Shown one piece after another: positions 1 through 13,609 of a stretch of DNA of 64,000 bases. Position 1 is the first letter of the stretch. Each line of letters opens with the position of its first letter. The notes beneath the pieces are model-generated. The model did not search any database and was not told the DNA's origin. It worked only from the letters and a program-made list of their open reading frames with translations. Both the position numbers and the translations under genes were made by a program. Origin of the DNA: Escherichia coli (GTDB lineage Bacteria; Pseudomonadota; Gammaproteobacteria; Enterobacterales; Enterobacteriaceae); NCBI RefSeq assembly GCF_011045215.1, contig NZ_CP049201.1; one strand, written 5' to 3'.

Positions 1-147
1 GGCGTGGCCCGGGGCATCACGCTTCATACCGCGGTGAAGGACGACGACAGCGAGGTGGCCGGGATTATCCGCGCACTGCTTGCTGGTGAGGAAAACGCCA
101 GGCTGCGTGCAGCCCACTGGTTACATGAGAGGGGGCTGAAAGTATGA
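1..147 (+). CDS. 3' end of an upstream phage late-region ORF (partial, function unknown)
   Basis: Frame 1 is open from the window edge to TGA at 145-147, overlapping the ATG of the next gene (ATGA coupling). No family recognised from the 48 visible residues. Confidence 0.35.
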   Translation, partial: GVARGITLHTAVKDDDSEVAGIIRALLAGEENARLRAAHWLHERGLKV

Positions 148-521
148 AGCTGATTCTGCCTTTTCCACCCAGCGTGAACACCTACTGGCGACACCCCAAC
201 AAAGGGGCATTTGCTGGTAAGAGCCTGATAAGCGCGGCGGGGCGAAAATTCCAGAGTGCGGCGTGCACAGCAATAGTTGAGCAGTTACGTCGTCTGCCGA
301 AACCAACGTCGGCACCTGCTTCAGTGGAGATCGTGTTGTTTCCTCCGGATAACCGGATCCGCGATCTGGACAACTATAACAAGGCGCTGTTTGACGCCCT
401 GACCCACGCGGGTGTGTGGGAAGACGACAGCCAGGTGAAAAGAATGCTGGTGGAGTGGGGACCGGTTATCCCGGAAACGGATGTTGCGGGTTGTTGTTCT
501 GCGGGTTCTGTTCTTCGTTGA
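144..521 (+). CDS. RusA-family Holliday-junction resolvase-like protein
   Basis: 125-aa ORF with motifs LPFPPSVNTYWRH and RIRDLDNYNKALFDALTHAGVWEDDSQV, matching the RusA signature ([41 protein letters not shown]) including the acidic catalytic residues. Confidence 0.6.
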   Translation: MKLILPFPPSVNTYWRHPNKGAFAGKSLISAAGRKFQSAACTAIVEQLRRLPKPTSAPASVEIVLFPPDNRIRDLDNYNKALFDALTHAGVWEDDSQVKRMLVEWGPVIPETDVAGCCSAGSVLR

Positions 522-689
522 CATGAGGTTGCCCCGTATTCAGTTTCGCTGATTTGTATTGTCTGAAGTTGTTTTTACGTTAAGTTGATGCAGATCAATT
601 AATACGATACCTGCGTCATAATTGATTATTTGACGTGGTTTGATGGCGTAGATGCACGTTGTGACATGTAGATGATAATTATTATCATT

Positions 690-905
690 TTGCGGGTCCT
701 TTCCGGCGATCCGACATGTTACGGGGCGGCGACCTCGCGGGTTTTCGCTATTTATGAAAATTTTCCGGTTTAAGGCGTTTCCGTTCTTCTTCGTCGTAAC
801 TTAATGTTTTTATTTAAAATACCCCCTGAAAAGAAAGGAAACGACAGGTGCTGAAAGCGAGCTTTTTGGCCTCTGTCGTTTCCTTTCTCTGTTTTTGGCC
901 GTGGA
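690..905 (+). other. Lambda-type cos site (cosQ-cosN-cosB); cosN 12-nt cohesive-end sequence GGGCGGCGACCT at about 724-735
   Basis: ...gggtcctttccggcgatccgacatgttacg/gggcggcgacctcgcgggttttcgctatttatgaaaattttccggtttaaggcgtttccg... is near-identical to the joined right and left ends of phage lambda as I recall them, and sits immediately upstream of Nu1. Confidence 0.85.
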
Positions 906-912
906 ATGAACA

Positions 913-1458
913 ATGGAAGTCAACAAAAAGCAGCTGGCTGACATTTTCGGTGCGAGTATCCGTACCATTCAGAACTGGCAGGAACAGGGAATGCCCGTTC
1001 TGCGAGGCGGTGGCAAGGGTAATGAGGTGCTTTATGACTCTGCCGCCGTCATAAAATGGTATGCCGAAAGGGATGCTGAAATTGAGAACGAAAAGCTGCG
1101 CCGGGAGGTTGAAGAACTGCGGCAGGCCAGCGAGACAGATCTCCAGCCAGGGACTATTGAGTACGAACGCCATCGACTTACGCGTGCGCAGGCCGACGCA
1201 CAGGAGCTGAAAAATGCCAGAGACTCCGCTGAAGTGGTGGAAACCGCATTCTGTACTTTCGTGCTGTCGCGGATCGCAGGTGAAATTGCCAGTATTCTCG
1301 ACGGGATCCCCCTGTCGGTGCAGCGGCGTTTTCCGGAACTGGAAAACCGACATGTTGATTTCCTGAAACGGGATATCATCAAAGCCATGAACAAAGCAGC
1401 CGCGCTGGATGAACTGATACCGGGGTTGCTGAGTGAATATATCGAACAGTCAGGTTAA
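913..1458 (+). CDS. nohD: Phage terminase small subunit Nu1 (DNA-packaging protein)
   Basis: 181-aa product MEVNKKQLADIFGASIRTIQNWQEQGMPVLRGGGKGNEVLYDSAAVIKWY... is essentially identical to lambda Nu1; its 3' end overlaps the start of gene A as in lambda. Confidence 0.95.
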   Translation: MEVNKKQLADIFGASIRTIQNWQEQGMPVLRGGGKGNEVLYDSAAVIKWYAERDAEIENEKLRREVEELRQASETDLQPGTIEYERHRLTRAQADAQELKNARDSAEVVETAFCTFVLSRIAGEIASILDGIPLSVQRRFPELENRHVDFLKRDIIKAMNKAAALDELIPGLLSEYIEQSG

Positions 1459-2452
1459 CAGGCTGCGGCATTTTGTCCGCGCCGGGCTTCGCTCACTGTT
1501 CAGGCCGGAGCCACAGACCGCCGTTGAATGGGCGGATGCCAATTACTATCTCCCAAAAGAATCCGCATACCAGGAAGGGCGCTGGGAAACACTGCCCTTT
1601 CAGAGGGCCATCATGAATGCGATGGGCAGTGACTACATCCGCGAGGTGAATGTGGTGAAGTCTGCCCGTGTTGGTTATTCCAAAATGCTGCTGGGTGTTT
1701 ATGCCTACTTCATAGAGCATAAGCAGCGCAATACCCTTATCTGGTTGCCGACGGATGGTGATGCCGAGAACTTTATGAAAACCCACGTTGAGCCGACTAT
1801 TCGTGATATTCCGTCGCTGCTGGCGCTGGCCCCGTGGTATGGCAAAAAGCACCGGGATAACACGCTCACCATGAAGCGTTTCACCAATGGGCGTGGCTTC
1901 TGGTGCCTGGGCGGTAAAGCGGCAAAAAACTACCGTGAAAAGTCAGTGGATGTGGCGGGTTATGATGAACTTGCTGCCTTTGATGAGGATATTGAACAGG
2001 AAGGCTCTCCGACGTTCCTGGGCGATAAGCGTATTGAAGGCTCGGTCTGGCCAAAGTCCATCCGTGGCTCCACGCCCAAAGTGAGAGGCACCTGCCAGAT
2101 TGAGCGTGCAGCCAGTGAATCCCCGCATTTTATGCGTTTTCATGTTGCCTGCCCGCATTGCGGGGAGGAGCAGTATCTTAAATTTGGCGACAAAGAGACG
2201 CCGTTTGGCCTCAAATGGACGCCGGATGACCCCTCCAGCGTGTTTTATCTCTGCGAGCATAATGCCTGCGTCATCCGCCAGCAGGAGCTGGACTTTACTG
2301 ATGCCCGTTATATCTGCGAAAAGACCGGGATCTGGAGGGGAATACCAACATCGCCGGTGTCACGGTGGTGTTCCGGGCAGGTGAACAGGAGCAGACACCG
2401 CCGGAGGGATTTGAATCCTCCGGATCCGAGACGGTGCTGGGTACGGAAGTGA
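1433..2452 (+). pseudogene. Terminase large subunit (lambda gpA) N-terminal ~300 codons, truncated; A-like sequence ends near 2335 and the ORF runs on out of frame to 2452
   Basis: MNISNSQVNRLRHFVRAGLRSLFRPEPQTAVEWADANYYLPKESAYQEGRWETLPFQRAIMNAMGSDYIREV...CEKTGIW matches lambda gpA, then continues as unrelated residues RGIPTSPVSRW... gpA is ~640 aa in lambda. Confidence 0.85.
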
Positions 2453-2823
2453 AATACGACACGCCGATCACCCGGACCATCACGTCTGCAAACATCGACC
2501 GTCTGCGCTTTACCTTCGGTGTGCAGGCACTGGTGGAAACCACCTCAAAGGGGGACCGGAATCCATCGGAAGTCCGCCTGCTGGTTCAGATACAACGTAA
2601 CGGTGGCTGGGTGACGGAAAAAGACATCACCATTAAGGGCAAAACCACCTCGCAGTATCTGACCTCGGTGGTGGTGGGTAACCTGCCGCCGCGCCCGTTT
2701 AATATCCGGATGCGCAGGATGACGCCGGACAGCACCACAGACCAGCTGCAGAACAAAACGCTCTGGTCGTCATACACCGAAATCATCGATGTGAAACAGT
2801 GCTACCTTCTGCCCGTAAGGTGA
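2338..2823 (+). pseudogene. Internal fragment (~160 codons) of lambda-like tail-tip/host-specificity gene J, with no N-terminus or C-terminus
   Basis: Translation ...VVFRAGEQEQTPPEGFESSGSETVLGTEVKYDTPITRTITSANIDRLRFTFGVQALVETTSKGDRNPSEVRLLVQIQRNGGWVTEKDITIKGKTTSQY...IIDVKQCY matches the middle of lambda J. It is in a different frame from the truncated A and ends in unrelated sequence. Confidence 0.8.
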
Positions 2824-4004
2824 ATGGTAAGGCGCTTTCAGCGGATATAACACTGACGCCGAAAGATATTGGTACGCTTAACTCAACAACAATGTCATTC
2901 AGCGGTGGTGCTGGTTGGTTCAAATTAGCAACGGTAACCATGCCACAGGCGAGTTCTGTTGTTTCAATTACGTTGATTGGTGGAGCTGGATTTAACGTGG
3001 GGTCACCTCAACAGGCAGGTATATCTGAACTTGTTTTGCGTGCAGGTAATGGTAATCCGAAGGGGATTACTGGTGCTTTATGGCAGCGCACATCGACAGG
3101 GTTTACAAATTTTGCCTGGGTCAATACATCTGGTGATACTTACGATATTTACGTTGCAATCGGAAATTATGCGACTGGTGTAAATATTCAATGGGATTAT
3201 ACCAGTAATGCCAGCGTGACGATTCATACGTCACCAGCATATTCTGCTAATAAGCCGGAAGGGTTAACGGACGGTACAGTTTATTCACTCTATACGCCAT
3301 CAGAACAGTTTTATCCGCCTGGCGCACCAATCCCGTGGCCATCAGATACCGTTCCGTCTGGCTATGCCCTGATGCAGGGGCAGACTTTTGACAAATCTGC
3401 CTACCCGAAACTTGCAGTCGCTTATCCGTCAGGCGTGATCCCTGATATGCGTGGCTGGACGATTAAGGGCAAGCCCGCCAGTGGTCGTGCCGTATTGTCT
3501 CAGGAACAGGACGGCATTAAATCGCATACCCACAGCGCCAGCGCATCCAGTACGGATTTGGGTACGAAAACCACATCGTCGTTTGATTACGGAACCAAAT
3601 CCACGAATAACACCGGGGCGCATACCCATAGTATTAGCGGGACTGCAAATAGTGCCGGTGCGCACCAACACAAGAGTTCCGGTGCATTTGGTGGCACGAA
3701 CACGAGCATTTTTCCTAATGGTTATACTGCGATTTCAAATCCAAGCGCGGGGATTATGAGCACAACAAGCGGTACTGGCCAGACTCGTAATGCAGGGAAG
3801 ACATCATCAGATGGTGCTCATACCCACTCACTGTCCGGCACTGCTGCAAGCGCAGGTGCACACGCACATACTGTCGGTATTGGTGCTCATACGCACTCCG
3901 TTGCGATTGGTTCACATGGACACACCATCACCGTTAACGCTGCTGGTAACGCGGAAAACACCGTCAAAAACATCGCATTTAACTATATTGTGAGGCTTGC
4001 ATAA
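2799..4004 (+). CDS. Side tail fibre protein, C-terminal receptor-binding portion with His-box repeats (probably a 5'-truncated remnant using an internal GTG)
   Basis: 401-aa ORF with repeated GAHTHS/GAHQH/GAHAHT/GSHGHT motifs and a C-terminal ...[22 protein letters not shown] typical of lambdoid Stf and T4 gp37-like fibre tips. Its stop overlaps the tfa start (TAATGG). The N-terminal tail-attachment region expected for Stf is absent. Confidence 0.65.
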
Positions 4005-4585
4005 TGGCATTCAGAATGAGTGAACAACCACGGACCATAAAAATTTATAATCTGCTGGCCGGAACTAATGAATTTATTGGTGAAGGTGACGCATATATTC
4101 CACCTCATACAGGTCTGCCAGCAAACAGTACCGATATTGCACCGCCAGATATTCCGGCAGGCTTCGTGGCTGTTTTCAACAGTGATGAGGCATCGTGGCA
4201 TCTTGTTGAAGACCATCGGGGTAAAACGGTTTATGACGTGGCTTCCGGCGACGCGTTATTTATTTCTGAACTCGGCTTATTACCGGAAAATGTCACCTGG
4301 TTATCCCCGGAAGGGGAGTTTCAGAAGTGGAACGGCACAGCCTGGGTGAAAGATGCAGAAGCAGAAAAACTGTTCCGGATCCGGGAGGCGGAAGAAACAA
4401 AAAACAACCTGATGCAGGTAGCCAGTGAGCATATTGCGCCACTTCAGGATGCTGTAGATCTGGAAATCGCAACGGAGGAAGAAAACTCGTTGCTGGAAGC
4501 CTGGAAGAAGTATCGGGTGTTGCTGAACCGTGTTGATACATCAACTGCACCTGATATTGAGTGGCCTGTAATACCAGAAGTTTAA
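4004..4585 (+). CDS. Tail fibre assembly protein (Tfa)
   Basis: 193-aa ORF translationally coupled to stf; the C-terminus ...[49 protein letters not shown] is the conserved Tfa motif. Confidence 0.85.
4431..4543 (+). repeat. Direct repeat copy 1: 3' segment of tfa (about 88% identical to 8260-8373)
   Basis: atattgcgccacttcaggatgctgtagatctggaaatcgcaacggaggaagaaaactcgttgctggaagcctggaagaagtatcgggtg... is nearly repeated at 8260-8373. Confidence 0.8.
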
Positions 4586-4589
4586 AATA

Positions 4590-4617
4590 AAAGCCCGCTT
4601 AAAATATCGCGGGCTTC
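4590..4617 (-). terminator. Hairpin (aaagcccgc...gcgggcttt) with a T-run on the minus strand; candidate terminator for the minus-strand catalase operon and possibly for tfa
   Basis: Inverted repeat aagcccgc / gcgggctt between convergent tfa and catalase genes; the minus-strand reading gives the stem followed by TTATTTTA. Confidence 0.5.
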
Positions 4618-4704
4618 GAAATATAAATGTATTTTCAGAGGCTAGAGCTTAGGATATCTCAGCGGCAATTAACTTATGAGGGATAGCTAAATACCAGAAG
4701 ATAA

Positions 4705-5595
4705 TTAGTTTTTACTATTTATCTTTGTTTGTGGTTCTCCTTCAGCAAGCTCAGCGCCAGTGACAGGATTGATGTCTTCATGGGATTTCAACCTTGTTGC
4801 CATAGCTTTTATCATAGCTTCTTGCTTGGTCGAAAGATTTATCGAGGCCTTCCCATCCCCACCGTCAACCGCTGGAACTGGATCGGAAATATAGTCAAAG
4901 TTTTCATCACTGTTCCAACTACCTCTGACGTCTTCACCTTCTGACATGTTGTAATATACGTTTTTGTATTTCTCAATTGGTGGTAATTTTCCTGGTGGAA
5001 AGGTGTTGCGAATTGAATGTAATGCTTTTTCAAATGAAAGCATGTGTGCTGCTTCCCTGGTCATTAAAAATGCCAGAGTGTCTTTTACTCCAGGATCATC
5101 AGTAACATTAATGAGACGTTCGTAAATGATCTTTGCCCGAGCTTCAGCTGCAATATTTGAACGAAGATCGGCCGTGACTTCGCCAATAGTATCAACATAA
5201 GCTGCAGTCCAGGGTACTCCAGCTGAATTAGTTAATGCTGGGCCTCCTCCGTAGAGGAGAGAAGTTATATGGCTGTCATTGCCATTTTGAGTTAAGGAAC
5301 GGTAAAGCTCAGCTTCATTCTCAGTTCCTTCAGCAAGTGCTCCTTTTGCACCTTTGTTGAGCATACCAACAAGAGAACCAATAATTTCGAGATGACTTAG
5401 TTCTTCTGTTGCTATGTCCATCAGCATATCCCTTCGGCCTGCATCTTCATCACTTAAGCCTTGAGTGAAGTATCGGCATGCTGCTGCAAGCTCACCCTGT
5501 GGCCCGCCGAATTGTTCTAAAAGTAGATTAGCCAAGCCTGGGTTTGGCTCACTTACACGTACTGTATATTGAAGTTTTTTCACGTGTCTAAACAT
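4705..5595 (-). CDS. Manganese (non-haem) catalase, KatN-like
   Basis: 296-aa product with ferritin-like Mn-catalase architecture (…EELSHLEIIGSLV…, …TREAAHMLSFEKAL…). It is last in a yciG-yciF-yciE-catalase gene order, as in the Salmonella yciGFE-katN operon. Confidence 0.8.
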   Translation of the reverse strand: MFRHVKKLQYTVRVSEPNPGLANLLLEQFGGPQGELAAACRYFTQGLSDEDAGRRDMLMDIATEELSHLEIIGSLVGMLNKGAKGALAEGTENEAELYRSLTQNGNDSHITSLLYGGGPALTNSAGVPWTAAYVDTIGEVTADLRSNIAAEARAKIIYERLINVTDDPGVKDTLAFLMTREAAHMLSFEKALHSIRNTFPPGKLPPIEKYKNVYYNMSEGEDVRGSWNSDENFDYISDPVPAVDGGDGKASINLSTKQEAMIKAMATRLKSHEDINPVTGAELAEGEPQTKINSKN

Positions 5596-5613
5596 AATGC
5601 CTCCTCAAAAGAA

Positions 5614-6120
5614 TTATTTTTTGGCTTCAACTCCATCAATTTCAGATCTGACCATGAATTGCTCAGTGGTGTCAGGAATATGGTTAAGAAGCCATTCAGC
5701 CATTTGTTTTTCTTCATTAAGAATTGCTTCAATAATGGGTACTGAAGCTGTATCACCCGCATTTTTGGCTGCTGCGAGAAGAGATGTGTAGCACGCAATT
5801 TCAAATTGTTCGAAAACATAGCCACTGATCGAACCTTTGACAATTTCATCAGATGGAAAAATTCCACCAATGGATTGCCCAAACGCGGCCATTTTACTCA
5901 TAGAGTCTTTAATGACAGAGCGCGAAATATTATTACGATCAAGTATGCTTTCAAGCTGTGAAAGCTGGTTCTTTGTTTCGCTAATGTGCTGCTCAATTCT
6001 GGAACGTAACTCTGGATAGTTTTCTATCCGGCTGGCCATAGACTCAAGCATTTTTTCAGCTTGTTTCTCCATCGCATGTGCATCACGAAGCCAGTCATGG
6101 TAATGTTCAATTCTATTCAT
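5614..6120 (-). CDS. YciE-like ferritin-like/DUF892 stress protein
   Basis: 168-aa product MNRIEHYHDWLRDAHAMEKQAEKMLESMASRIENYPELR... closely resembles E. coli YciE. Confidence 0.85.
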   Translation of the reverse strand: MNRIEHYHDWLRDAHAMEKQAEKMLESMASRIENYPELRSRIEQHISETKNQLSQLESILDRNNISRSVIKDSMSKMAAFGQSIGGIFPSDEIVKGSISGYVFEQFEIACYTSLLAAAKNAGDTASVPIIEAILNEEKQMAEWLLNHIPDTTEQFMVRSEIDGVEAKK

Positions 6121-6156
6121 AATCTGTTTATCCTAAAAGAAATTGAAGTCTATAGT

Positions 6157-6663
6157 TCAGGAGTTATCCTGAGCTTTTTTATTAACGTTATTAAATGCCA
6201 GGTCTGTTAATTTGACATCAGTAGCTTTTTCCTCTTCCAGTGTTTCTTTCAGGAGTTTAGCCGCTTTTTTATATCCTAATTGCTCAGCGAGTGTTACCAA
6301 AGTGCCATAACTGGCAATTTCATAGTGCTCTACTTTTTGTGCTGCAGCAATCAATGCAGCATCACGTACTTCATTTTTATCAGTGCTTTCAATTACCTCA
6401 TTCGCCTCTTCGATAAGTCCTTCCATTGCGGCACACTTAATTCTTTTCAATTTAAGACCATCTTCAGAATCAACAATCTGATCGATGCGTTCAATTTGAC
6501 CATGTGTCTCATCAAGATGTGACTGAAAAGCAGCGGTTAATTTATCACTATATGCAGAGCGACTAAGTTTAGACAGTGCCTTTGTTAGTTGTTTCTCAGC
6601 GCTGTATGTATCCGATAATAAGTGGATGAAGATATCTTCAACAGATTTAATTTGCATAATCAC
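6157..6663 (-). CDS. YciF-like DUF892 stress protein
   Basis: 168-aa product ...VEDIFIHLLSDTYSAEKQLTKAL...EVRDAALIAAAQKVEHYEIASYGTL... closely resembles E. coli YciF. Confidence 0.85.
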   Translation of the reverse strand: MIMQIKSVEDIFIHLLSDTYSAEKQLTKALSKLSRSAYSDKLTAAFQSHLDETHGQIERIDQIVDSEDGLKLKRIKCAAMEGLIEEANEVIESTDKNEVRDAALIAAAQKVEHYEIASYGTLVTLAEQLGYKKAAKLLKETLEEEKATDVKLTDLAFNNVNKKAQDNS

Positions 6664-6735
6664 TCCAGAGTTTTCACTGCGAGCCCGTAGGCTCGCAGTT
6701 AGCTTCAGTTATTCACGAATGTAGGGGATGATAAA

Positions 6736-6918
6736 TTAAGAGTCAGATTTACGGCCGCCACCATGGCTATTCTGACCACCTTTTTTCCCTGCTTCTGATG
6801 CTCTTTGTGGATCGTTTTTAAAATTACCGCCACTATGTTGGCCGCCTTTACGACCAGCGTCAGAAGCTTTTTGTCGATCTTCAGCGAAATTACCTGCACC
6901 GCCACGATGTTCGGTCAT
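6736..6918 (-). CDS. YciG-like KGG-repeat general stress protein
   Basis: 60-aa product MTEHRGGAGNFAEDRQKASDAGRKGGQHSGGNFKNDPQRASEAGKKGGQ... with KGG repeats, resembling YciG/YmdF; first gene of the four-gene minus-strand operon. Confidence 0.8.
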   Translation of the reverse strand: MTEHRGGAGNFAEDRQKASDAGRKGGQHSGGNFKNDPQRASEAGKKGGQNSHGGGRKSDS

Positions 6919-7383
6919 ATCATTTCTCCTCTGATTTTCAAATTGTAAATAACATGTGCCTTGTCAGCACCCAATTAACTCTAGTAACAAATAAGAAAGT
7001 GTCAAATAACAGATTGGTATGCGCATTTTGATGTGAGAAATAATAATTGTAAAAATGTGCGCTCAGTGAGTATAATCTATTGATATCTTAGTGATTAACG
7101 GAAAATTTAGGTTGTAACTCAAAAGATTAATAAACCTAAATTTACATTTCTATATTATTTGGTGTGCCTGTTGTTGTTTTTCTCAATAAGAATACTCTGT
7201 AAAATAATTCAATCGTAAGATGGTTGTTATTCATATTTTTTTGAGATAGTTCCTAATAGGGTCCATCCCTTGAATAAATAATTGTTTTAAAATTTCGTCT
7301 AAAGAACTAATTACAAGAAAATTTATATAGTCCAAGGAATCATGATTGTACTTAACCATAAGATTTGAGCGTAAAAATTAATG

Positions 7384-7414
7384 CGCAGCACGTCGTATGC
7401 AAGAACGTGCTGCG
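7384..7414 (-). terminator. Rho-independent terminator candidate downstream of the methyltransferase gene
   Basis: 9-bp perfect stem cgcagcacg / cgtgctgcg; on the minus strand it is followed by ATTAATTTTT. Confidence 0.55.
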
Positions 7415-7422
7415 GTTGGATG

Positions 7423-8091
7423 CTATTTTTTCCCTGAAGCGGAAAACATTACTACAGTACCTTGAACCTTGGTTTTAACATTCTCGAAATGCTCTGAGAG
7501 TATATGTGTTAAGCCTTCTTCGGAATCTCTTGTGTTTGAAAAGATGCCTTTCTGATTGTAAATGCGCATCAGTTTTTGACCGAAGCGATTGTGCACAATT
7601 CCATCGCCAAGAATTGTGGCTCCGTATAGAGTTCCATCGCCAGTTAAGGCCTGCGCCGCATTGCGTATTACACAGCTTTTTGTAGATATATTTCCAGGCA
7701 GGCAGTGAAGAAGGTAAAACATGGAAATGGAATCAAATTGACCATGTAACGCCGCGGGATAAGGTTCAAAAACATCATGGCTAATTTTATGTTTAATTTT
7801 TGATTCCCCAGCCCTTGTAGATGCCGCGTTCAGGCTAGCTTCGTTCAAATCCATTAAAGATATCAGACTACTCTCAGGTACGTGAGTAAGGTAAAACCCA
7901 GTTCCAACACCAATATCCAGATGGTTGTTACCTAAATGTTCCAGAAAGTGTGGAAGAAGGTGTTCCTTTGTAGGACATCCCCATGCAAGCCGATTTGATA
8001 CTCCCAAAACCCACCAGTCATAAAGCTTTAGGGTAAGTGGTGTGTAAATTTTAGCCCCATCATCTGTGTTTTTTTTCATTAATTTCACCAT
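7423..8091 (-). CDS. ybcY: Class I SAM-dependent methyltransferase (YbcY-like), apparently intact
   Basis: 222-aa ORF with the SAM-binding motif LDIGVGTGFY and a Rossmann-type methyltransferase layout. It occupies the ybcY position of DLP12, between the tfa copies. Confidence 0.7.
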   Translation of the reverse strand: MVKLMKKNTDDGAKIYTPLTLKLYDWWVLGVSNRLAWGCPTKEHLLPHFLEHLGNNHLDIGVGTGFYLTHVPESSLISLMDLNEASLNAASTRAGESKIKHKISHDVFEPYPAALHGQFDSISMFYLLHCLPGNISTKSCVIRNAAQALTGDGTLYGATILGDGIVHNRFGQKLMRIYNQKGIFSNTRDSEEGLTHILSEHFENVKTKVQGTVVMFSASGKK

Positions 8092-8147
8092 GTTATAGTT
8101 TTATTTGTGAATTAAATCAATTATGGCAATGAATTACAAGGGGTTAA

Positions 8148-8453
8148 ATGCTGCCGCAGCATGGCGATATTGAAATAGCCTGGTATGCTTCAATACAGCA
8201 GGAGCCGAATGGCTGGAAGACCGTCACCACACAGTTCTACATCCAGGAATTCAGTGAGTATATTGCGCCACTGCAGGATGCTGTAGATCTGGAAATCGCA
8301 ACGGAGGAAGAAAGATCGTTGCTGGAGGCATGGAATAAATATCGGGTATTGTTGAATCGTGTTGATACATCAGTAGCTCTGGGTATGAAGCTGTTTGTAA
8401 CTCATGTTACAGTAACAGCCATTACTATCTCGAAGGTGCAAAATGTATATTGA
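8148..8453 (+). pseudogene. tfaX: Tail fibre assembly gene remnant (tfaX-like), carrying only part of the Tfa C-terminal domain
   Basis: 101-aa ORF with ...[38 protein letters not shown]... but no Tfa N-terminal half, and a divergent C-terminal tail. Confidence 0.7.
8260..8373 (+). repeat. Direct repeat copy 2: tfa 3' segment (pairs with 4431-4543)
   Basis: tattgcgccactgcaggatgctgtagatctggaaatcgcaacggaggaagaaagatcgttgctggaggcatggaataaatatcgggta... Confidence 0.8.
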
Positions 8454-8581
8454 TTTGATATTTTATAAATTTACTTCGAATCTGGCACGTCAACTTTTGA
8501 TTAAAGTAATATCAGTTTTCGGCGAAAAAAGGACCGTGTACATGAGACGATTTCATACAAGAATAACAAAAATATGAATAT

Positions 8582-8615
8582 GCTCCCAATGCAATATATG
8601 TTTTGCATTGGGAGC
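8582..8615 (-). terminator. Rho-independent terminator candidate for the peptidase gene
   Basis: 12-bp stem gctcccaatgca / tgcattgggagc; the minus-strand reading is followed by a T-rich run. Confidence 0.55.
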
Positions 8616-8636
8616 AAATAGCGGAATATTTTGAAA

Positions 8637-10121
8637 TTATTGTATTTCTGCTTCAGAATTTCCTGGGCAGTATATATTTTCTATTTTTTGTGGAGTGATC
8701 AGGTGATGTACAACTGCTTTATCTACACATAAATTAACTCCGGTGAGAGCTAATGTATGCCCATCACCATTTATTGTTAGTAACGGGCTGGAAAATTTCT
8801 CTGCCATCTTACGGGCATTAATCCAGGGCGTTGTTGGATCGTATTTGTGTGCTACAAACAGTAAACCAGAGGGCAGAACAGTATTTTTCAGGCGAGTTTT
8901 GTTCAGGTCGCTATGTATTGGCCATAATTCACAAAAATCAGGTGAATCGGAACGTCCATTGTCAAAGTTAATAGCCGGGAAGGCATTCGCAAGAGCCTCT
9001 TTTCGGAATTTTCGCTCTTCTGGTGTTAATTGCTCATCCCCCTGATCTACACAAAGGATTACCCCCGAAGCATCACTTGACTCTTCTGAGGCTATCGGAG
9101 CACTGAGCGCAGTTTCAATTTCATTACTGACAATCCCCTGAGAGAACTGGCGTATGGCAGTTGCAAGGGTTGGCCATGATGAACGCCATAGCAGAAGGTC
9201 TGTTGTTAATGATATGAGTTCATCTGAAGATATATTTTCTCCCTTACTGTCTAATAAAGGTTTGTGATGTAATTTTGATAATAGCTCATGGAACTGAGTT
9301 ATTGCCTTATCTCTGTCTGAAGAAAGCGGGCAACTTTTTGTACGCGCACACCAGGATGCAAAGCGATCAAACGTTTCCTGATAACTCTGTGCCTGTTTGA
9401 GTTGCCATGTGAAGTTGTTCTCCAGGTCATCGATATCGACGACTCCATCAAGAACGATAGATCTTACGTTGTAGGGAAAACGTTCTGCATATAAGGCTGC
9501 AATTTGAGTTCCATACGAATACGCCACGGCTGTCAGTTGTTTATCCCCCAAGGCTTGCCTAATACGATCAATATCGTATACAGCCTCGTTAGAGCCGATA
9601 TGGCGAATGACTTCGGCTCCGGTATTATGGATACAGGCATTAATTTTATTTAATACTTGTTGCTTTTCGGTTATGTTTTCCTGAGTCTCTGTATCTGATT
9701 GTCGGCAGTTTATTGTCGGAGTGGACTGTCCGACGCCTCGAGGATCAAATCCAATAATATCCCATGACTCACGAAGATTTGTGACTGGCCAGTCAAAGTT
9801 AATATAAGGATTTATGCCTGGCAACCCGGGACCACCACTTATTATCAGGATACTTCCTTTATGCTTGCTTTTTGCCGGCAATTTTGTCAACGCTAGTTTG
9901 ACTTGTGATTTTTTTTCATAAGAAGCATCTCCGCCTGTGTCTGTATATTTTAATGGAACAGACAAATAACCACATAGTAAGTCAGGAGACGGTTTTTCCT
10001 CACCAAACCAGTGGTTGAATTGACTGGCCATACAGGATTGCCACTGTATCTGCTGGGCAGATACGGTTACTGGTAGAAGTAACGTTAAAACAACTTTGAA
10101 ATGAGTAATTATTTTTCGCAT
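8637..10121 (-). CDS. Secreted alpha/beta-hydrolase, S33-type (tripeptidyl/prolyl aminopeptidase-like) peptidase
   Basis: 494-aa ORF with an N-terminal signal peptide (MRKIITHFKVVLTLLLPVTVSA), a GGPGLPG oxyanion-type motif and a nucleophile elbow VAYSYGTQ (G-x-S-x-G variant). Confidence 0.65.
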   Translation of the reverse strand: MRKIITHFKVVLTLLLPVTVSAQQIQWQSCMASQFNHWFGEEKPSPDLLCGYLSVPLKYTDTGGDASYEKKSQVKLALTKLPAKSKHKGSILIISGGPGLPGINPYINFDWPVTNLRESWDIIGFDPRGVGQSTPTINCRQSDTETQENITEKQQVLNKINACIHNTGAEVIRHIGSNEAVYDIDRIRQALGDKQLTAVAYSYGTQIAALYAERFPYNVRSIVLDGVVDIDDLENNFTWQLKQAQSYQETFDRFASWCARTKSCPLSSDRDKAITQFHELLSKLHHKPLLDSKGENISSDELISLTTDLLLWRSSWPTLATAIRQFSQGIVSNEIETALSAPIASEESSDASGVILCVDQGDEQLTPEERKFRKEALANAFPAINFDNGRSDSPDFCELWPIHSDLNKTRLKNTVLPSGLLFVAHKYDPTTPWINARKMAEKFSSPLLTINGDGHTLALTGVNLCVDKAVVHHLITPQKIENIYCPGNSEAEIQ

Positions 10122-10260
10122 TGTGTCTCTGAATATCGGAATAAAGATAAAATTTGAATATATTGAGGTCTTGTGTTGCGGTAAGAGATTACACGTTATG
10201 ACATAGGTTAAATGCTTACAAAATTAGTGGATATTGTCTACTTGTAACTGTAAACAAATT

Positions 10261-10287
10261 CCCCGGGGTTATACAATACCACCGGGG
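10261..10287 (-). terminator. Hairpin (ccccgggg...ccgggg) downstream of ompT; candidate terminator
   Basis: GC-rich inverted repeat about 20-45 nt past the ompT stop on the minus strand. Confidence 0.4.
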
Positions 10288-10307
10288 AGAAAATCTGGTT
10301 AACTTCG

Positions 10308-11261
10308 TTAAAAGGTGTACTTAAGACCAGCAGTAGTGATGAAGTTATAGTTTTCTATGCCTGCACCATTTTTGCTGTAGTCTGAAGTGTTATCATTGTG
10401 ATCATAAAGTGAAGTATTACCTTTTTTATTCGTAACCCGATTCCATGCGCCTTCAACATAAACTTTTGCGTTAGGTGTTACGTAATAACCTGCATTGACT
10501 GCAACAGAATAGTAATTTTGGTCTTTGACCTTACTGCGATAAGTGATTCTTTTTCCCGGGTCATAGTGTTCATCGTTATCAGATGATTCCACCCAGCCGC
10601 TGTATTTAAATGTGCCACCGAGTTCAAAATCTTCATAACGATAACTTCCAGTCAAGCCAATGTAGGGCATTTTAAAACGTTGTTTGTAGCCGATTGCTCT
10701 TTCTCCATTCGGGAAGGAGCCGATATCATCTCTGAATCCCTCCTCAGAACTGTAGATATAGGAACCACCTCTGGCTGTAAAGCTATAACGGCTTTCCTGA
10801 TATCCGGCCATGAGTCCCAGGCGGTAATTGGGTTCGTTGAGGAGCCAGCCTTTGATATTCAGATCAAATTCGTTGGCATAATTGAGTTGTGTATCAGGGT
10901 GCTTACTTTCATCTGTCCAGGTTCCGGGGTTACTGGAATCCATCCAGTCCTGATCGACCATATTGCCACCCCGGCTGCCGAGAGTAGTCCAGCCCGCAGC
11001 CCCAATAGATATCTGGGGCATCAAATCCCAATTAATTGCACCTTTAATAATTGCAGCGTTATTGAATTTCCAGTCGAGTTGACTGACTTTTCGGCCTCCT
11101 TCTTCAGCTAGATAAACGCGCTCTTTTGTTTTTCCGCTCAGAGTTCCAAGACTAATGTCCACATTTATGTTGTCAGGAGTAAACGATATAGTCTCGGTAG
11201 AAGCAAAAGAGCTGATCGCAATAGGGGTTGTCAGGACTATTCCCAGAAGTTTCGCCCGCAT
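10308..11261 (-). CDS. ompT: Outer-membrane protease VII (omptin)
   Basis: 317-aa product MRAKLLGIVLTTPIAISSFASTETISFTPDNINVDISLGTLSGKTKERVYLAEEGG... matches OmpT nearly residue for residue. Confidence 0.95.
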   Translation of the reverse strand: MRAKLLGIVLTTPIAISSFASTETISFTPDNINVDISLGTLSGKTKERVYLAEEGGRKVSQLDWKFNNAAIIKGAINWDLMPQISIGAAGWTTLGSRGGNMVDQDWMDSSNPGTWTDESKHPDTQLNYANEFDLNIKGWLLNEPNYRLGLMAGYQESRYSFTARGGSYIYSSEEGFRDDIGSFPNGERAIGYKQRFKMPYIGLTGSYRYEDFELGGTFKYSGWVESSDNDEHYDPGKRITYRSKVKDQNYYSVAVNAGYYVTPNAKVYVEGAWNRVTNKKGNTSLYDHNDNTSDYSKNGAGIENYNFITTAGLKYTF

Positions 11262-11684
11262 AAAAGTTCTCCATTCAATCGTTTTAATGATTGAATATGT
11301 ATTTTTTATATCTAACTTAATGAGTCAATTACATATTGCTCCACTGTTTATATTTTGTTTAGTATTGAATGATTATCACAATGCGCTATCTATTTTTGGT
11401 TTAATTATCTGTTATTGTTTCATATTGCGGTTTTACTGTGTGTTTTTTTTATGCTTTTGTGGTGCTTTTATCTATTTAAGTGCCATGCCTTTAGAGGCAT
11501 ATAAGCGAAAATAGCACGAGGTTTATCCTCAATTGCTATGTTTTTTAGTACAAAAAAGAGGGACAAAACTGAGACACATAAGGCCTCACAATGGCTTGCA
11601 AGGCTTTACATGTTTTGAGGTAGTGGGACGTGTGAGCGCAGAGATGGCGCGGTAAGTTGTTGACTTAAAATGTCGTTCTAGGAA

Positions 11685-11729
11685 CTTCTAAGTCGTGGGC
11701 CGCAGGTTCGAATCCTGCAGGGCGCGCCA
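11685..11729 (+). other. Prophage attR: duplicated 3' ~45 nt of tRNA-Arg (argU); a tRNA fragment, not a functional gene
   Basis: cttctaagtcgtgggccgcaggttcgaatcctgcagggcgcgcca is the 3' half of argU, with no matching 5' half or D-arm upstream. This is the expected right junction of an argU-integrated prophage. Confidence 0.85.
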
Positions 11730-11774
11730 TTTCTTCTTCATTTATGCCCGTCTTATCCGTTTCCGCTTTGCCCT

Positions 11775-12536
11775 TCACCACATCACTTTTTGTCGCTGTT
11801 TGGCGAGATAATTCAACGGTGTCAGGCCGTAAAACGCCTTAAAAACAGAGATAAAGTACGACGTGCTGCTATAGCCACATAATTGCGCCACCTGAGTGAT
11901 ATTTTTGTTATCCATCAATAACATCTGTACGGCGTAACGCATACGACACTCTGTGACAATCTGGCTATAGCTGGTATTTTCGTTTTTTAATTTCTTTTTG
12001 AGCAGGCTGGGGCTTAAACATAGCGAACTGGCGACAATTCGCAGATTCCAGTAATGCTGAATATCGCTTTGAATAATGCGGCAGACGCTGTCGCGGACGC
12101 TGCTGCGTAAGATATACATCAGTAGGGCAATAAACCGCGATTGCTCAAGAAAGTTAGACAATACGGTAAAAAGCAATGCGCGCGTCAACTCCGCTTCGCA
12201 GGGTTTGCTGGGTTGCTGCTTGCTGTGGTTGGCGGCTAGCCGGAACACTTCCGGTGTACGGCTATGACAAGCGATAACCGGGGTAGCCAGCCGCGACCAG
12301 GGCTTTACACAGGTTAAGTTCTTATTTAAAAACAACAGATAATCGTTGATGATGTTACGGTTGATGTGGGTGATTAATACGTGATTTAACGTTGAGAGTT
12401 CAATGACGTTATTGTTGCACGCGAAGGCGGCCAGGTAGTTTTTCGGAAGGGTAAACGTAGCATGGTTATTGACGCTTACCTCTACCTCTTTTTCGGTCAG
12501 GATCACCACGCAAGGTTCACTGCTGCTCAATTGCAT
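11775..12536 (-). CDS. envY: AraC-family transcriptional regulator EnvY (porin thermoregulation)
   Basis: 253-aa product MQLSSSEPCVVILTEKEVEVSVNNHATFTLPKNYLAAFACNNNVIELS... with a C-terminal AraC HTH. Confidence 0.9.
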   Translation of the reverse strand: MQLSSSEPCVVILTEKEVEVSVNNHATFTLPKNYLAAFACNNNVIELSTLNHVLITHINRNIINDYLLFLNKNLTCVKPWSRLATPVIACHSRTPEVFRLAANHSKQQPSKPCEAELTRALLFTVLSNFLEQSRFIALLMYILRSSVRDSVCRIIQSDIQHYWNLRIVASSLCLSPSLLKKKLKNENTSYSQIVTECRMRYAVQMLLMDNKNITQVAQLCGYSSTSYFISVFKAFYGLTPLNYLAKQRQKVMW

Positions 12537-12718
12537 TTCGCACTCCTCAGATATCAGAAACTCCGCTCAAAGGATCTATGCTTCCTGCATGAGTGATCGG
12601 CCCGTTCGCCGATAACGATCTTCTTTCTTTAGCATGCTTTTTAGCAATTAATCTTGATGGAATTCTGACGAGAGCGAAAGAGGTAAGCCAGGTCGTACCC
12701 GACTTACCTGGAGGAGAT

Positions 12719-13609
12719 TTAATACTCGAGAATGCCGTGCGCGACGGGCAAATAGCGCAGAGAGAAATAGAGAGTGTCTTTACCGCAAGAGGAACGTTTC
12801 GCTAACAGCGAGGCAATTTCTGCGTCCGGTTTCGGTTTCGCTGTAAAGGTTTTGCCTTTGCCGGCGACAAACAGTTCATAAACAATGCCGCTTGCTGGGG
12901 CGGAGCTTTGGCAATCGGCGCTGGCCTGTAGATAACGTTCACGCTGTTCAGCGGTAAGTTTATTCACGCCGCTGCCATCCTGTACCCAGACATTAACGCC
13001 GGTTGCTTTAACGTGTTCCAGCAGTTGGCGATAGCCATCGGGCGACATGTTTCCGGCGAAAAAACTACTGATATAAACCGGTTTTGCTGAAACATCGCTA
13101 ATCAGCCGCTGCGCGTTGTTTAACCATGTTAGCAAAGGCTGACGGGCGGCTTCGCTGCGCCAGTTCAGGTCGTCAATTTCCGCGCTGATGTACCAGCCAT
13201 CCGGCGTTACGCCAGGCGCGGCGCTCCATAATCTGGCTTGCTGGAGATCGGCAGCCAGCAGGCGATTAAGATAGCTTTCCAGCGCTGCGGACGACTGTTT
13301 CTGGTGCATAAAAAATTCCGGATCGGCGTTCAGCCCGACAATCAGCTTCAGGCCAGCCTGTTGCGCAGCTGCGGCCCGCTTAAACAATAACGTGCGCTGT
13401 TCTGGCTGGGTAAATGCATCGCCGTAACGGGTCCATTGCAAAACCAGGGTATCGAAGCCTTGCAAACGTAACTGACTCATCAGCCCCTGCCACTGGGTAT
13501 CGGTAACCTGACTATCACGGTTTTGTGGTTGCCAGATAATACCTTTCATCGCAAAGGAAAAAGGGCTGACCAAAAGCAGTGTCAGCAATACGAAAATGAA
13601 CTTACGCAT
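12719..13609 (-). CDS. ybcH: DUF4434-family periplasmic protein YbcH
   Basis: 296-aa product with signal peptide MRKFIFVLLTLLLVSPFSFA; matches YbcH. Confidence 0.85.
   Translation of the reverse strand: MRKFIFVLLTLLLVSPFSFAMKGIIWQPQNRDSQVTDTQWQGLMSQLRLQGFDTLVLQWTRYGDAFTQPEQRTLLFKRAAAAQQAGLKLIVGLNADPEFFMHQKQSSAALESYLNRLLAADLQQARLWSAAPGVTPDGWYISAEIDDLNWRSEAARQPLLTWLNNAQRLISDVSAKPVYISSFFAGNMSPDGYRQLLEHVKATGVNVWVQDGSGVNKLTAEQRERYLQASADCQSSAPASGIVYELFVAGKGKTFTAKPKPDAEIASLLAKRSSCGKDTLYFSLRYLPVAHGILEY

Follow-up and report, generated by a model that had tools for sequence, protein, structure and literature searches.

A manganese catalase operon, yciG-yciF-yciE-katN, lies in an AT-rich block (positions 4586-8147) of the Escherichia coli window analysed here, a stretch of 64,000 nucleotides (nt) from assembly GCF_011045215.1, contig NZ_CP049201.1. 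We consider it highly probable that the operon serves as lysogenic-conversion cargo and that it belongs to the attR-proximal end of a lambdoid prophage of the DLP12 type, defective and integrated at argU, where a katN cassette, captured once and regulated as in O157:H7, is combined with the usual cargo block of the phage. The cargo would consist of two layers. The first is a 2.8-kb cassette (4568-7376) between the end of the tail-fibre assembly gene tfa and the terminator of a methyltransferase gene, antisense to the phage late genes. The second, comprising the methyltransferase, a tfa remnant, an alpha/beta hydrolase and ompT, would be the usual cargo of this lambdoid phage group. Operon, prophage location and regulation are already known from O157:H7. 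Anatomy, junctions, sequence identity and distribution come from this analysis; regulation and catalase function are taken from the literature.

The operon is present in 381 of 5,426 complete E. coli genomes (approximately 7%), always on the chromosome and many times in O157:H7. A 141-nt segment spanning the left junction of the cassette (4566-4706) was found in 380 of the 5,426 genomes, exclusively katN-bearing ones (380 of 381), and the full-length matches listed are annotated 'tail fiber assembly protein' and 'manganese catalase'. The cassette stands 3' of the side tail-fibre gene stf and tfa in prophages at icd (L001), near minCDE in O157:H7 (L002), at argU (L003) and beside bio (L004); its integration sites number four or more. 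The shared tfa-katN junction points to one capture and subsequent spread.

Results

Genes and control elements of the katN cassette

The cassette and the gene on its left comprise the following features.

4004-4585, plus strand: tfa, intact tail-fibre assembly gene, 193 amino acids (open reading frame (ORF); length equal to the annotated tfa of L001 and L002)
4568-7376, no strand: variable katN cassette, 2,809 bp (BLAST and junction reading against the katN-less loci L006, strain RX24, and L005, strain K-12 TOP10)
4590-4617, minus strand: intrinsic terminator hairpin of the katN operon, downstream of katN, with a 9-bp G+C-rich stem followed by UUUUAUUUU on the minus strand
4705-5595, minus strand: katN, manganese (dimanganese) catalase, 296 amino acids (NCBIfam ManCatBAC, E = 4e-49; PDB 6J42, 4R42, 1JKU)
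5614-6120, minus strand: yciE-like gene, ferritin-like (DUF892) protein, 168 amino acids (PDB 3OGH, E. coli YciE, E = 3e-97)
6157-6657, minus strand: yciF-like gene, ferritin-like protein, 166 amino acids counted from ATG (PDB 2GS4 and 4ERU, YciF, E = 2e-82)
6736-6918, minus strand: yciG-like gene, small general stress protein, 60 amino acids (RefSeq homologues: 'con-10 family general stress protein')
6919-7383, no strand: AT-rich non-coding leader and spacer 5' of yciG (30.4% G+C across 6919-7422)
6978-7005, minus strand: predicted promoter of the operon, TTGACA, 16-nt spacer, TAGAGT, with a C just 5' of the -10 hexamer

A preliminary description of the block had reported a four-gene minus-strand operon and an S-adenosylmethionine (SAM)-dependent methyltransferase, both ending in a terminator hairpin of their own and flanked by an intact tfa on one side and a tfa remnant on the other. 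All of this was found again, the hairpins being located at 4590-4617 and 7384-7414. The order of the co-oriented operon genes is yciG, yciF, yciE, katN, with gaps of 78, 36 and 18 nt. KatN matches the manganese catalases of known structure 6J42, 4R42 and 1JKU with E-values from 5e-47 to 5e-35. Four motifs align with the structure sequences, GELAAA (residues 34-39), EELSHLE (64-70), AAEARA (149-154) and TREAAHM (179-185); in this family such motifs carry the glutamate and histidine metal ligands. The score against the NCBIfam ManCatBAC equivalog is 167 bits with a cut-off of 350 bits, which places KatN in the manganese catalase family, outside that Bacillus-type equivalog. Concerning yciF, the mechanically derived ORF reaches a GTG at 6663, while RefSeq homologues begin at the ATG used here (501 nt). 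Neither tfa, the methyltransferase nor any of the yciE-, yciF- and yciG-like proteins was assigned to a family by NCBIfam, and PDB and Pfam were used instead. The four cargo proteins tested all fall in PHROG families (phrog_7573, 37918, 2132 and 20134), and RefSeq and PHROG families exist for all genes of the block.

The katN terminator folds with -16 kcal/mol (z = -2.98 against shuffled controls), the hairpin at 7384-7414 with -18 kcal/mol (z = -3.38). The site at 6978-7005 is the best promoter-like match (10 of 12 positions) in a region that is invariant across five loci; it may be linked to sigma-S. Further upstream the spacer at approximately 7190-7380 exists in two alleles that are only about 80% identical, with operon coding DNA that is more than 99% identical. 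The window shares one allele with JNEC-KY175 and Ec-U10; O157:H7 and MEI003 have the other. An ORF of 42 amino acids in the spacer (7231-7359) was rejected as a small gene, since it is not kept in the O157 allele. The 11-nt direct repeat AATACCAGAAG occurs at 4570-4580 and 4690-4700 on either side of the katN terminator, the first copy spanning the final tfa codons and the second immediately preceding the stop codon of katN. Chance could explain this repeat, or it may be a scar of the capture event. An Rfam scan of the block for structured RNA yielded only the family IS009 on the tfa 3' segments, a partial transfer RNA (tRNA) at attR and sub-threshold chance matches.

Prophage setting and neighbouring cargo

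Around the cassette lie the remains of the prophage and its further cargo.

2799-4004, plus strand: stf, C-terminal part of the side tail-fibre gene, leftover of the decayed prophage (ORF; the homologous region in L001, L002 and L006 is annotated 'prophage tail fiber N-terminal domain-containing protein')
7384-7414, minus strand: terminator-like hairpin of the methyltransferase gene, 11-bp stem, U-tail weaker than that of the katN terminator; shared with katN-less L005 and L006
7423-8091, minus strand: class I SAM-dependent methyltransferase (intact ybcY type), 222 amino acids (Pfam Methyltransf_12 (6e-8), _25, _23 and _11 across residues 52-182; phrog_2132)
8148-8453, plus strand: tfa remnant ORF (tfaX type), tfa-like only across 8241-8400; L001, L002 and L003 annotate an incomplete tfa pseudogene
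8637-10121, minus strand: alpha/beta hydrolase (S33 / TAP-like), 494 amino acids (Pfam Abhydrolase_1 and Abhydrolase_4; phrog_20134, 'unknown function')
10308-11261, minus strand: ompT, outer-membrane protease, same phage cargo block (ORF; annotated in L001, L003 and phage ev243, there beside int)
11684-11729, plus strand: 3' fragment of argU tRNA-Arg(UCU), last 46 nt, forming attR, the right end of the prophage (partial Rfam tRNA match below threshold; between ompT and envY)

A decayed lambdoid prophage occupies the left part of the window. What is left of it includes a rusA-like gene, the gene for the small subunit of terminase, a shortened large-terminase gene that runs into pieces of tail genes, and the C-terminal part of stf; the left prophage end (int, argU) lies outside the window. 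The tRNA fragment at 11684-11729 is presumably the 3' end of argU, as expected for attR in a prophage of the DLP12 type. Beyond attR follow envY, ybcH and nfrA as host genes. With stf-tfa on one side and attR on the other, the preliminary view of moron-type cargo at the distal end of a cryptic prophage holds: the evidence supports the block as an accessory part of a defective prophage of the DLP12 type at argU. The cassette shows what is expected of a moron. It is placed between tail-fibre genes and attachment site, in the same position as in the intact-looking prophages L001, L002 and L004, has a predicted promoter and a terminator, is present or absent between collinear phages and deviates in base composition (40.7% G+C across 4586-7000).

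The AT-richness of the block, first judged by eye, was borne out by computation: its G+C content is 39.3%, as compared to 51.2% in the window overall and 51.6% in the flank on its left (1-4585). Within the window, only 2% of sliding windows of the block's length are as low in G+C. The G+C fraction at third codon positions of the five block genes is 0.25-0.36, that of the host genes ybcH and nfrA 0.57-0.58. As the right flank up to envY (8148-12600) is likewise AT-rich (42.1% G+C), the block is the trough of a larger AT-rich zone at the prophage end and no isolated island.

Towards solved structures the methyltransferase shows weak, UbiG-like matches (E = 0.002), and a literature search on ybcY found no functional study. 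The closest solved relatives of the hydrolase are the Mycobacterium tuberculosis serine hydrolases Hip1/CaeA (E approximately 1e-50). It is probably secreted, judging from an apparent signal peptide read by eye from the translation. It adjoins ompT in phages ev243, 2G7b and Turner and occupies the position of appY in K-12. The preliminary description had named this gene, called a peptidase there, together with the block as the most plausible location of anything undescribed; its occurrence in functional lambdoid phages speaks against that. Both the methyltransferase and the Hip1-like hydrolase are commonly carried by phages, and they would reward further study more than the catalase operon.

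Boundaries of the cassette and direction of the event

Base-level homology with the katN-less loci ends at 4567 and restarts at 7377. Where the window has the cassette, L005 and L006 have 29 bp of unrelated sequence, with one junction shared by both. The left junction falls within the last six codons of tfa (4568-4585), which ends in EWPVIPEV in the window and in EWPTNPVRE in the katN-less loci; on the right, the junction immediately precedes the terminator of the methyltransferase gene. With 29 bp exchanged for the cassette, neither state can be derived from the other by simple insertion or deletion. Transposition was considered and rejected, as neither a target-site duplication nor an inverted repeat is evident in the junction sequences at the cassette ends.

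It might be argued that the katN-bearing arrangement is ancestral in the phage cargo region and that katN-less loci, including K-12, are deletion derivatives. One junction is common to the katN loci and one to the katN-less loci L005 and L006, so that a single origin is possible in either direction, and the presence of the operon at several integration sites and in diverse hosts also speaks for this reading. Nevertheless, we hold this to be unlikely, although it survives better than any other alternative. The katN-less state is about ten times commoner: the methyltransferase occurs at 4,876 places in 3,831 of the 5,426 genomes, katN at 386 places at most (approximately 8%). Isolated functional phages show the katN-less state only. 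As would be expected of an added moron, the cassette forms a transcription unit complete in itself, terminator included, and the different tfa C-termini of the two states suggest replacement over simple deletion. The preliminary description had allowed that the block would be ordinary if katN were the common ancestral state and K-12 the deleted one. At approximately 8% of methyltransferase places this is not the case; what makes the operon ordinary is that it has been described before and is widespread, and not that most loci have it.

The tfa repeats

A direct repeat of tfa sequence connects 4412-4571 with 8241-8400 (83% identity over 160 nt). In its core, 4423-4539 aligned with 8252-8368, a manual count gives 11 mismatched positions out of 117 nt (approximately 91% over 121 nt by BLAST), and the longest exact run is approximately 40 nt. 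Thus the direct tfa 3' repeats of approximately 115 bp seen in the preliminary description exist in the orientation given there; to call them near-identical was overstated. Rfam assigns the candidate E. coli small RNA family IS009 to the coding tfa 3' part (4347-4545, 227 bits) and, under the gathering score, to the tfa remnant (8171-8374, 111 bits). This 'RNA family' may simply be conserved tfa 3' sequence.

These repeats had been taken to bracket the cargo, which would then be a strain-specific, undescribed unit gained or exchanged by recombination between them. Such an origin is very improbable, although some observations speak for it: the repeats are direct and their exact run is long enough for RecA-dependent recombination, and K-12 is without the operon. 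Moreover, the cassette of L003 is immediately preceded by a 126-bp remnant of the tfa 3' end to which a different tail-fibre gene has been joined, an indication that recombination within the conserved tfa 3' segment occurs. However, the variable unit is 4568-7376 only and its right end lies outside the repeat. In katN-less K-12 and RX24 the repeats flank the methyltransferase alone; as methyltransferase and both repeats are present with or without katN, they do not mark its insertion. Recombination between them would delete the block, not install katN. Nor is the cargo strain-specific or undescribed, with the operon found in 381 genomes and published in O157:H7 and the methyltransferase in 3,831 genomes.

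Origin and spread of the cassette

That the operon is an intragenomic duplicate of the host trp-linked yciGFE, landed in the prophage, would account for the same gene order, for 79-88% protein identity of YciE, YciF and YciG (YciE 88% and YciG 83% against the chromosomal copies of E. coli Sel(aux), L017) and for the AT-richness of both loci (approximately 41-42% G+C), but it is effectively refuted by a DNA identity of only approximately 74% to chromosomal E. coli yciGFE (thousands of genomes) and by the chromosomal locus examined, where katN is missing and ompW directly follows yciE, the promoter regions in addition being barely alignable. The chromosomal yciGFE itself has 42% G+C; low G+C is therefore a trait of this operon family in E. 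coli and no proof of recent import.

Among 80 katN loci of other species, retrieved with a degenerate katN pattern, the best DNA identity is approximately 74%, and Citrobacter sedlakii and Citrobacter amalonaticus are closest, with KatN proteins 85-86% identical over the full length. With approximately 74% to E. coli yciGFE and approximately 75% to Salmonella yciE-katN, the cassette is thereby at much the same distance from all these chromosomal operons. None of these 80 species-representative loci has an E. coli-type tfa or the methyltransferase beside the operon. The pattern search needs an exact peptide match and will miss some relatives; the donor may be unsampled or among those missed. 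A locus of an Enterobacterales metagenome-assembled genome (L075, JAATFX010000068.1, 5309-7093) has a tfa-like gene (phrog_105, E = 3e-27) directly 5' of a lone katN homologue (73% protein identity) without yciGFE. It may represent an independent joining of a manganese catalase to a phage tail-fibre module.

At the argU/DLP12 site, 18 genomes match at least 80% of 4586-13600 and hence have the window's architecture; at least nine further genomes carry katN there and have appY or are without the hydrolase. In IMG/VR, nine predicted viral contigs encode KatN at 97-100% identity. Two short 'phage' records with 84% protein identity (L018, OR851627.1; L019, OR845539.1), the only matches of a protein search among phage records, were set aside as Salmonella-type chromosomal yciE-katN(-ompW) fragments, and as such they are no evidence for a phage carrying the operon. 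They are probably host DNA carried over in phage preparations; one of the two records bears an E. coli O157:H7 host label.

Among the genomes with katN are those of isolates from otter, baboon, blackbird, a native rodent (Zyzomys), seawater, pigs and rabbit-farm or veterinary surroundings. Non-pathogenic E. coli have been stated to be without katN (PMC5363993), a claim that the isolates from wild animals and the environment may qualify.

Discussion

We propose that the cassette was captured once directly 3' of a tfa gene, from an unsampled enterobacterial donor, and that it later spread from one lambdoid prophage to another, homologous recombination in its flanks being the probable route, with the tfa 3' end on the left and the methyltransferase on the right. 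By analogy with the O157:H7 copy, the operon would most likely be silenced by H-NS in growing cells and be switched on by RpoS, and also by OxyR, in stationary phase or upon oxidative stress. Its product would be a haem-independent dimanganese catalase that removes hydrogen peroxide, accompanied by two ferritin-like proteins and a small general stress protein.

The models for this regulation are published. In O157:H7 strain EDL933, katN (Z1921) and Z1922-Z1924 form an operon on the cryptic prophage CP-933X that is homologous to Salmonella yciGFE-katN; the name KatN was given to Z1921 in the same study (Wan et al. 2017, PMC5363993). RpoS and OxyR activate the Z1921 operon, which is more than 450-fold up in an hns mutant, and KatN aids growth of O157:H7 under oxidative stress and is reported to be secreted into macrophages by a type VI secretion system (T6SS) (PMC5363993). 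RpoS dependence of Z1922-Z1924 amounts to 35- to 137-fold (Dong and Schellhorn 2009, PMC2907692). In a pangenome study, ECs_1652 was present in almost all genomes of sequence type 11 (PMC9205054).

Several points weigh against lysogenic-conversion cargo with O157-like regulation and a single capture. The katN event may have been a gain or a loss. None of 50,697 phage records searched with the cassette DNA gave a match, so that no isolated sequenced phage of this collection carries it, and its phage mobility is deduced from prophages at several sites. Regulation in this strain is transferred by analogy from O157:H7 and might differ in its fine control, given a spacer only approximately 80% identical to O157. 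Likewise, secretion of KatN in this strain would depend on a T6SS and is reported for O157:H7 only. Finally, the O157:H7 strain compared here was 6535WT, not EDL933.

A wider proposal can be made, for which our doubts slightly exceed our confidence. All E. coli prophage copies of katN would derive from one capture beside tfa from an unsampled enterobacterial donor; the tfa 3' segment of approximately 120 bp (Rfam IS009) and the methyltransferase would provide the homology by which the cargo travels between lambdoid prophages at different sites; and where wild animals or the environment were the source of the isolate, KatN might not be a secreted virulence effector at all but a stationary-phase catalase that works only inside the cell.

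Comparison with known systems

The second layer of the cargo is known from phages. The window's DNA for the methyltransferase, tfa remnant and hydrolase recurs at 99% identity in ev243, 2G7b, Turner and the PhiR series, and in ev243 these genes are contiguous with the following ompT and int. Unlike the window, the genomes of these phages are without the katN cassette.

The distal end of DLP12 in K-12 (tfaD, ybcY, tfaX, appY, ompT) is at the same site and shares the direct tfa repeats and the gene order through nfrA. It differs by the lack of the katN cassette, a truncated tfa, a frameshifted methyltransferase and appY in place of the alpha/beta hydrolase. This comparison was made with the K-12 derivative TOP10 (L005), whose map reads tfa pseudogene, frameshifted methyltransferase, tfa remnant, appY and ompT. 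It agrees with the K-12 map without catalase operon given in the preliminary description, which rightly saw extra, intact cargo in the present strain.

Salmonella enterica has a chromosomal yciGFE-katN operon of the same gene order, which is reportedly sigma-S-dependent. Its KatN has approximately 84% protein identity to that of the window; likewise 84% was reported for Z1921 (PMC5363993). The Salmonella operon is located beside ompW without phage flanks, and its DNA identity to the window is approximately 73-75% (yciE-katN approximately 75%). Chromosomal yciGFE-katN is also found in many other Enterobacteriaceae.

The closest counterpart is the katN operon of O157:H7 (Z1921-Z1924, ECs_1652 and neighbours; CP-933X, O-island 52), with the same four genes, the same order and the same tfa-katN junction. 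The proteins are 98-100% identical (YciE and YciG 100%) and the coding DNA more than 99%; KatN agrees in 293 of 296 residues (99.0%) with strain 6535WT. Beyond the operon, both loci continue with the same genes, those of the methyltransferase, the tfa remnant, the hydrolase and ompT. In contrast to O157:H7, the prophage of the window is a decayed DLP12-type one at argU, not near minCDE, has no ISEc8 insertion and carries the other spacer allele. To what is known of the O157:H7 operon, this study adds that no close chromosomal donor is found among 80 species representatives, that the cassette occurs at four or more sites with one shared tfa-katN junction, and that its exact boundaries are 4568 and 7376.

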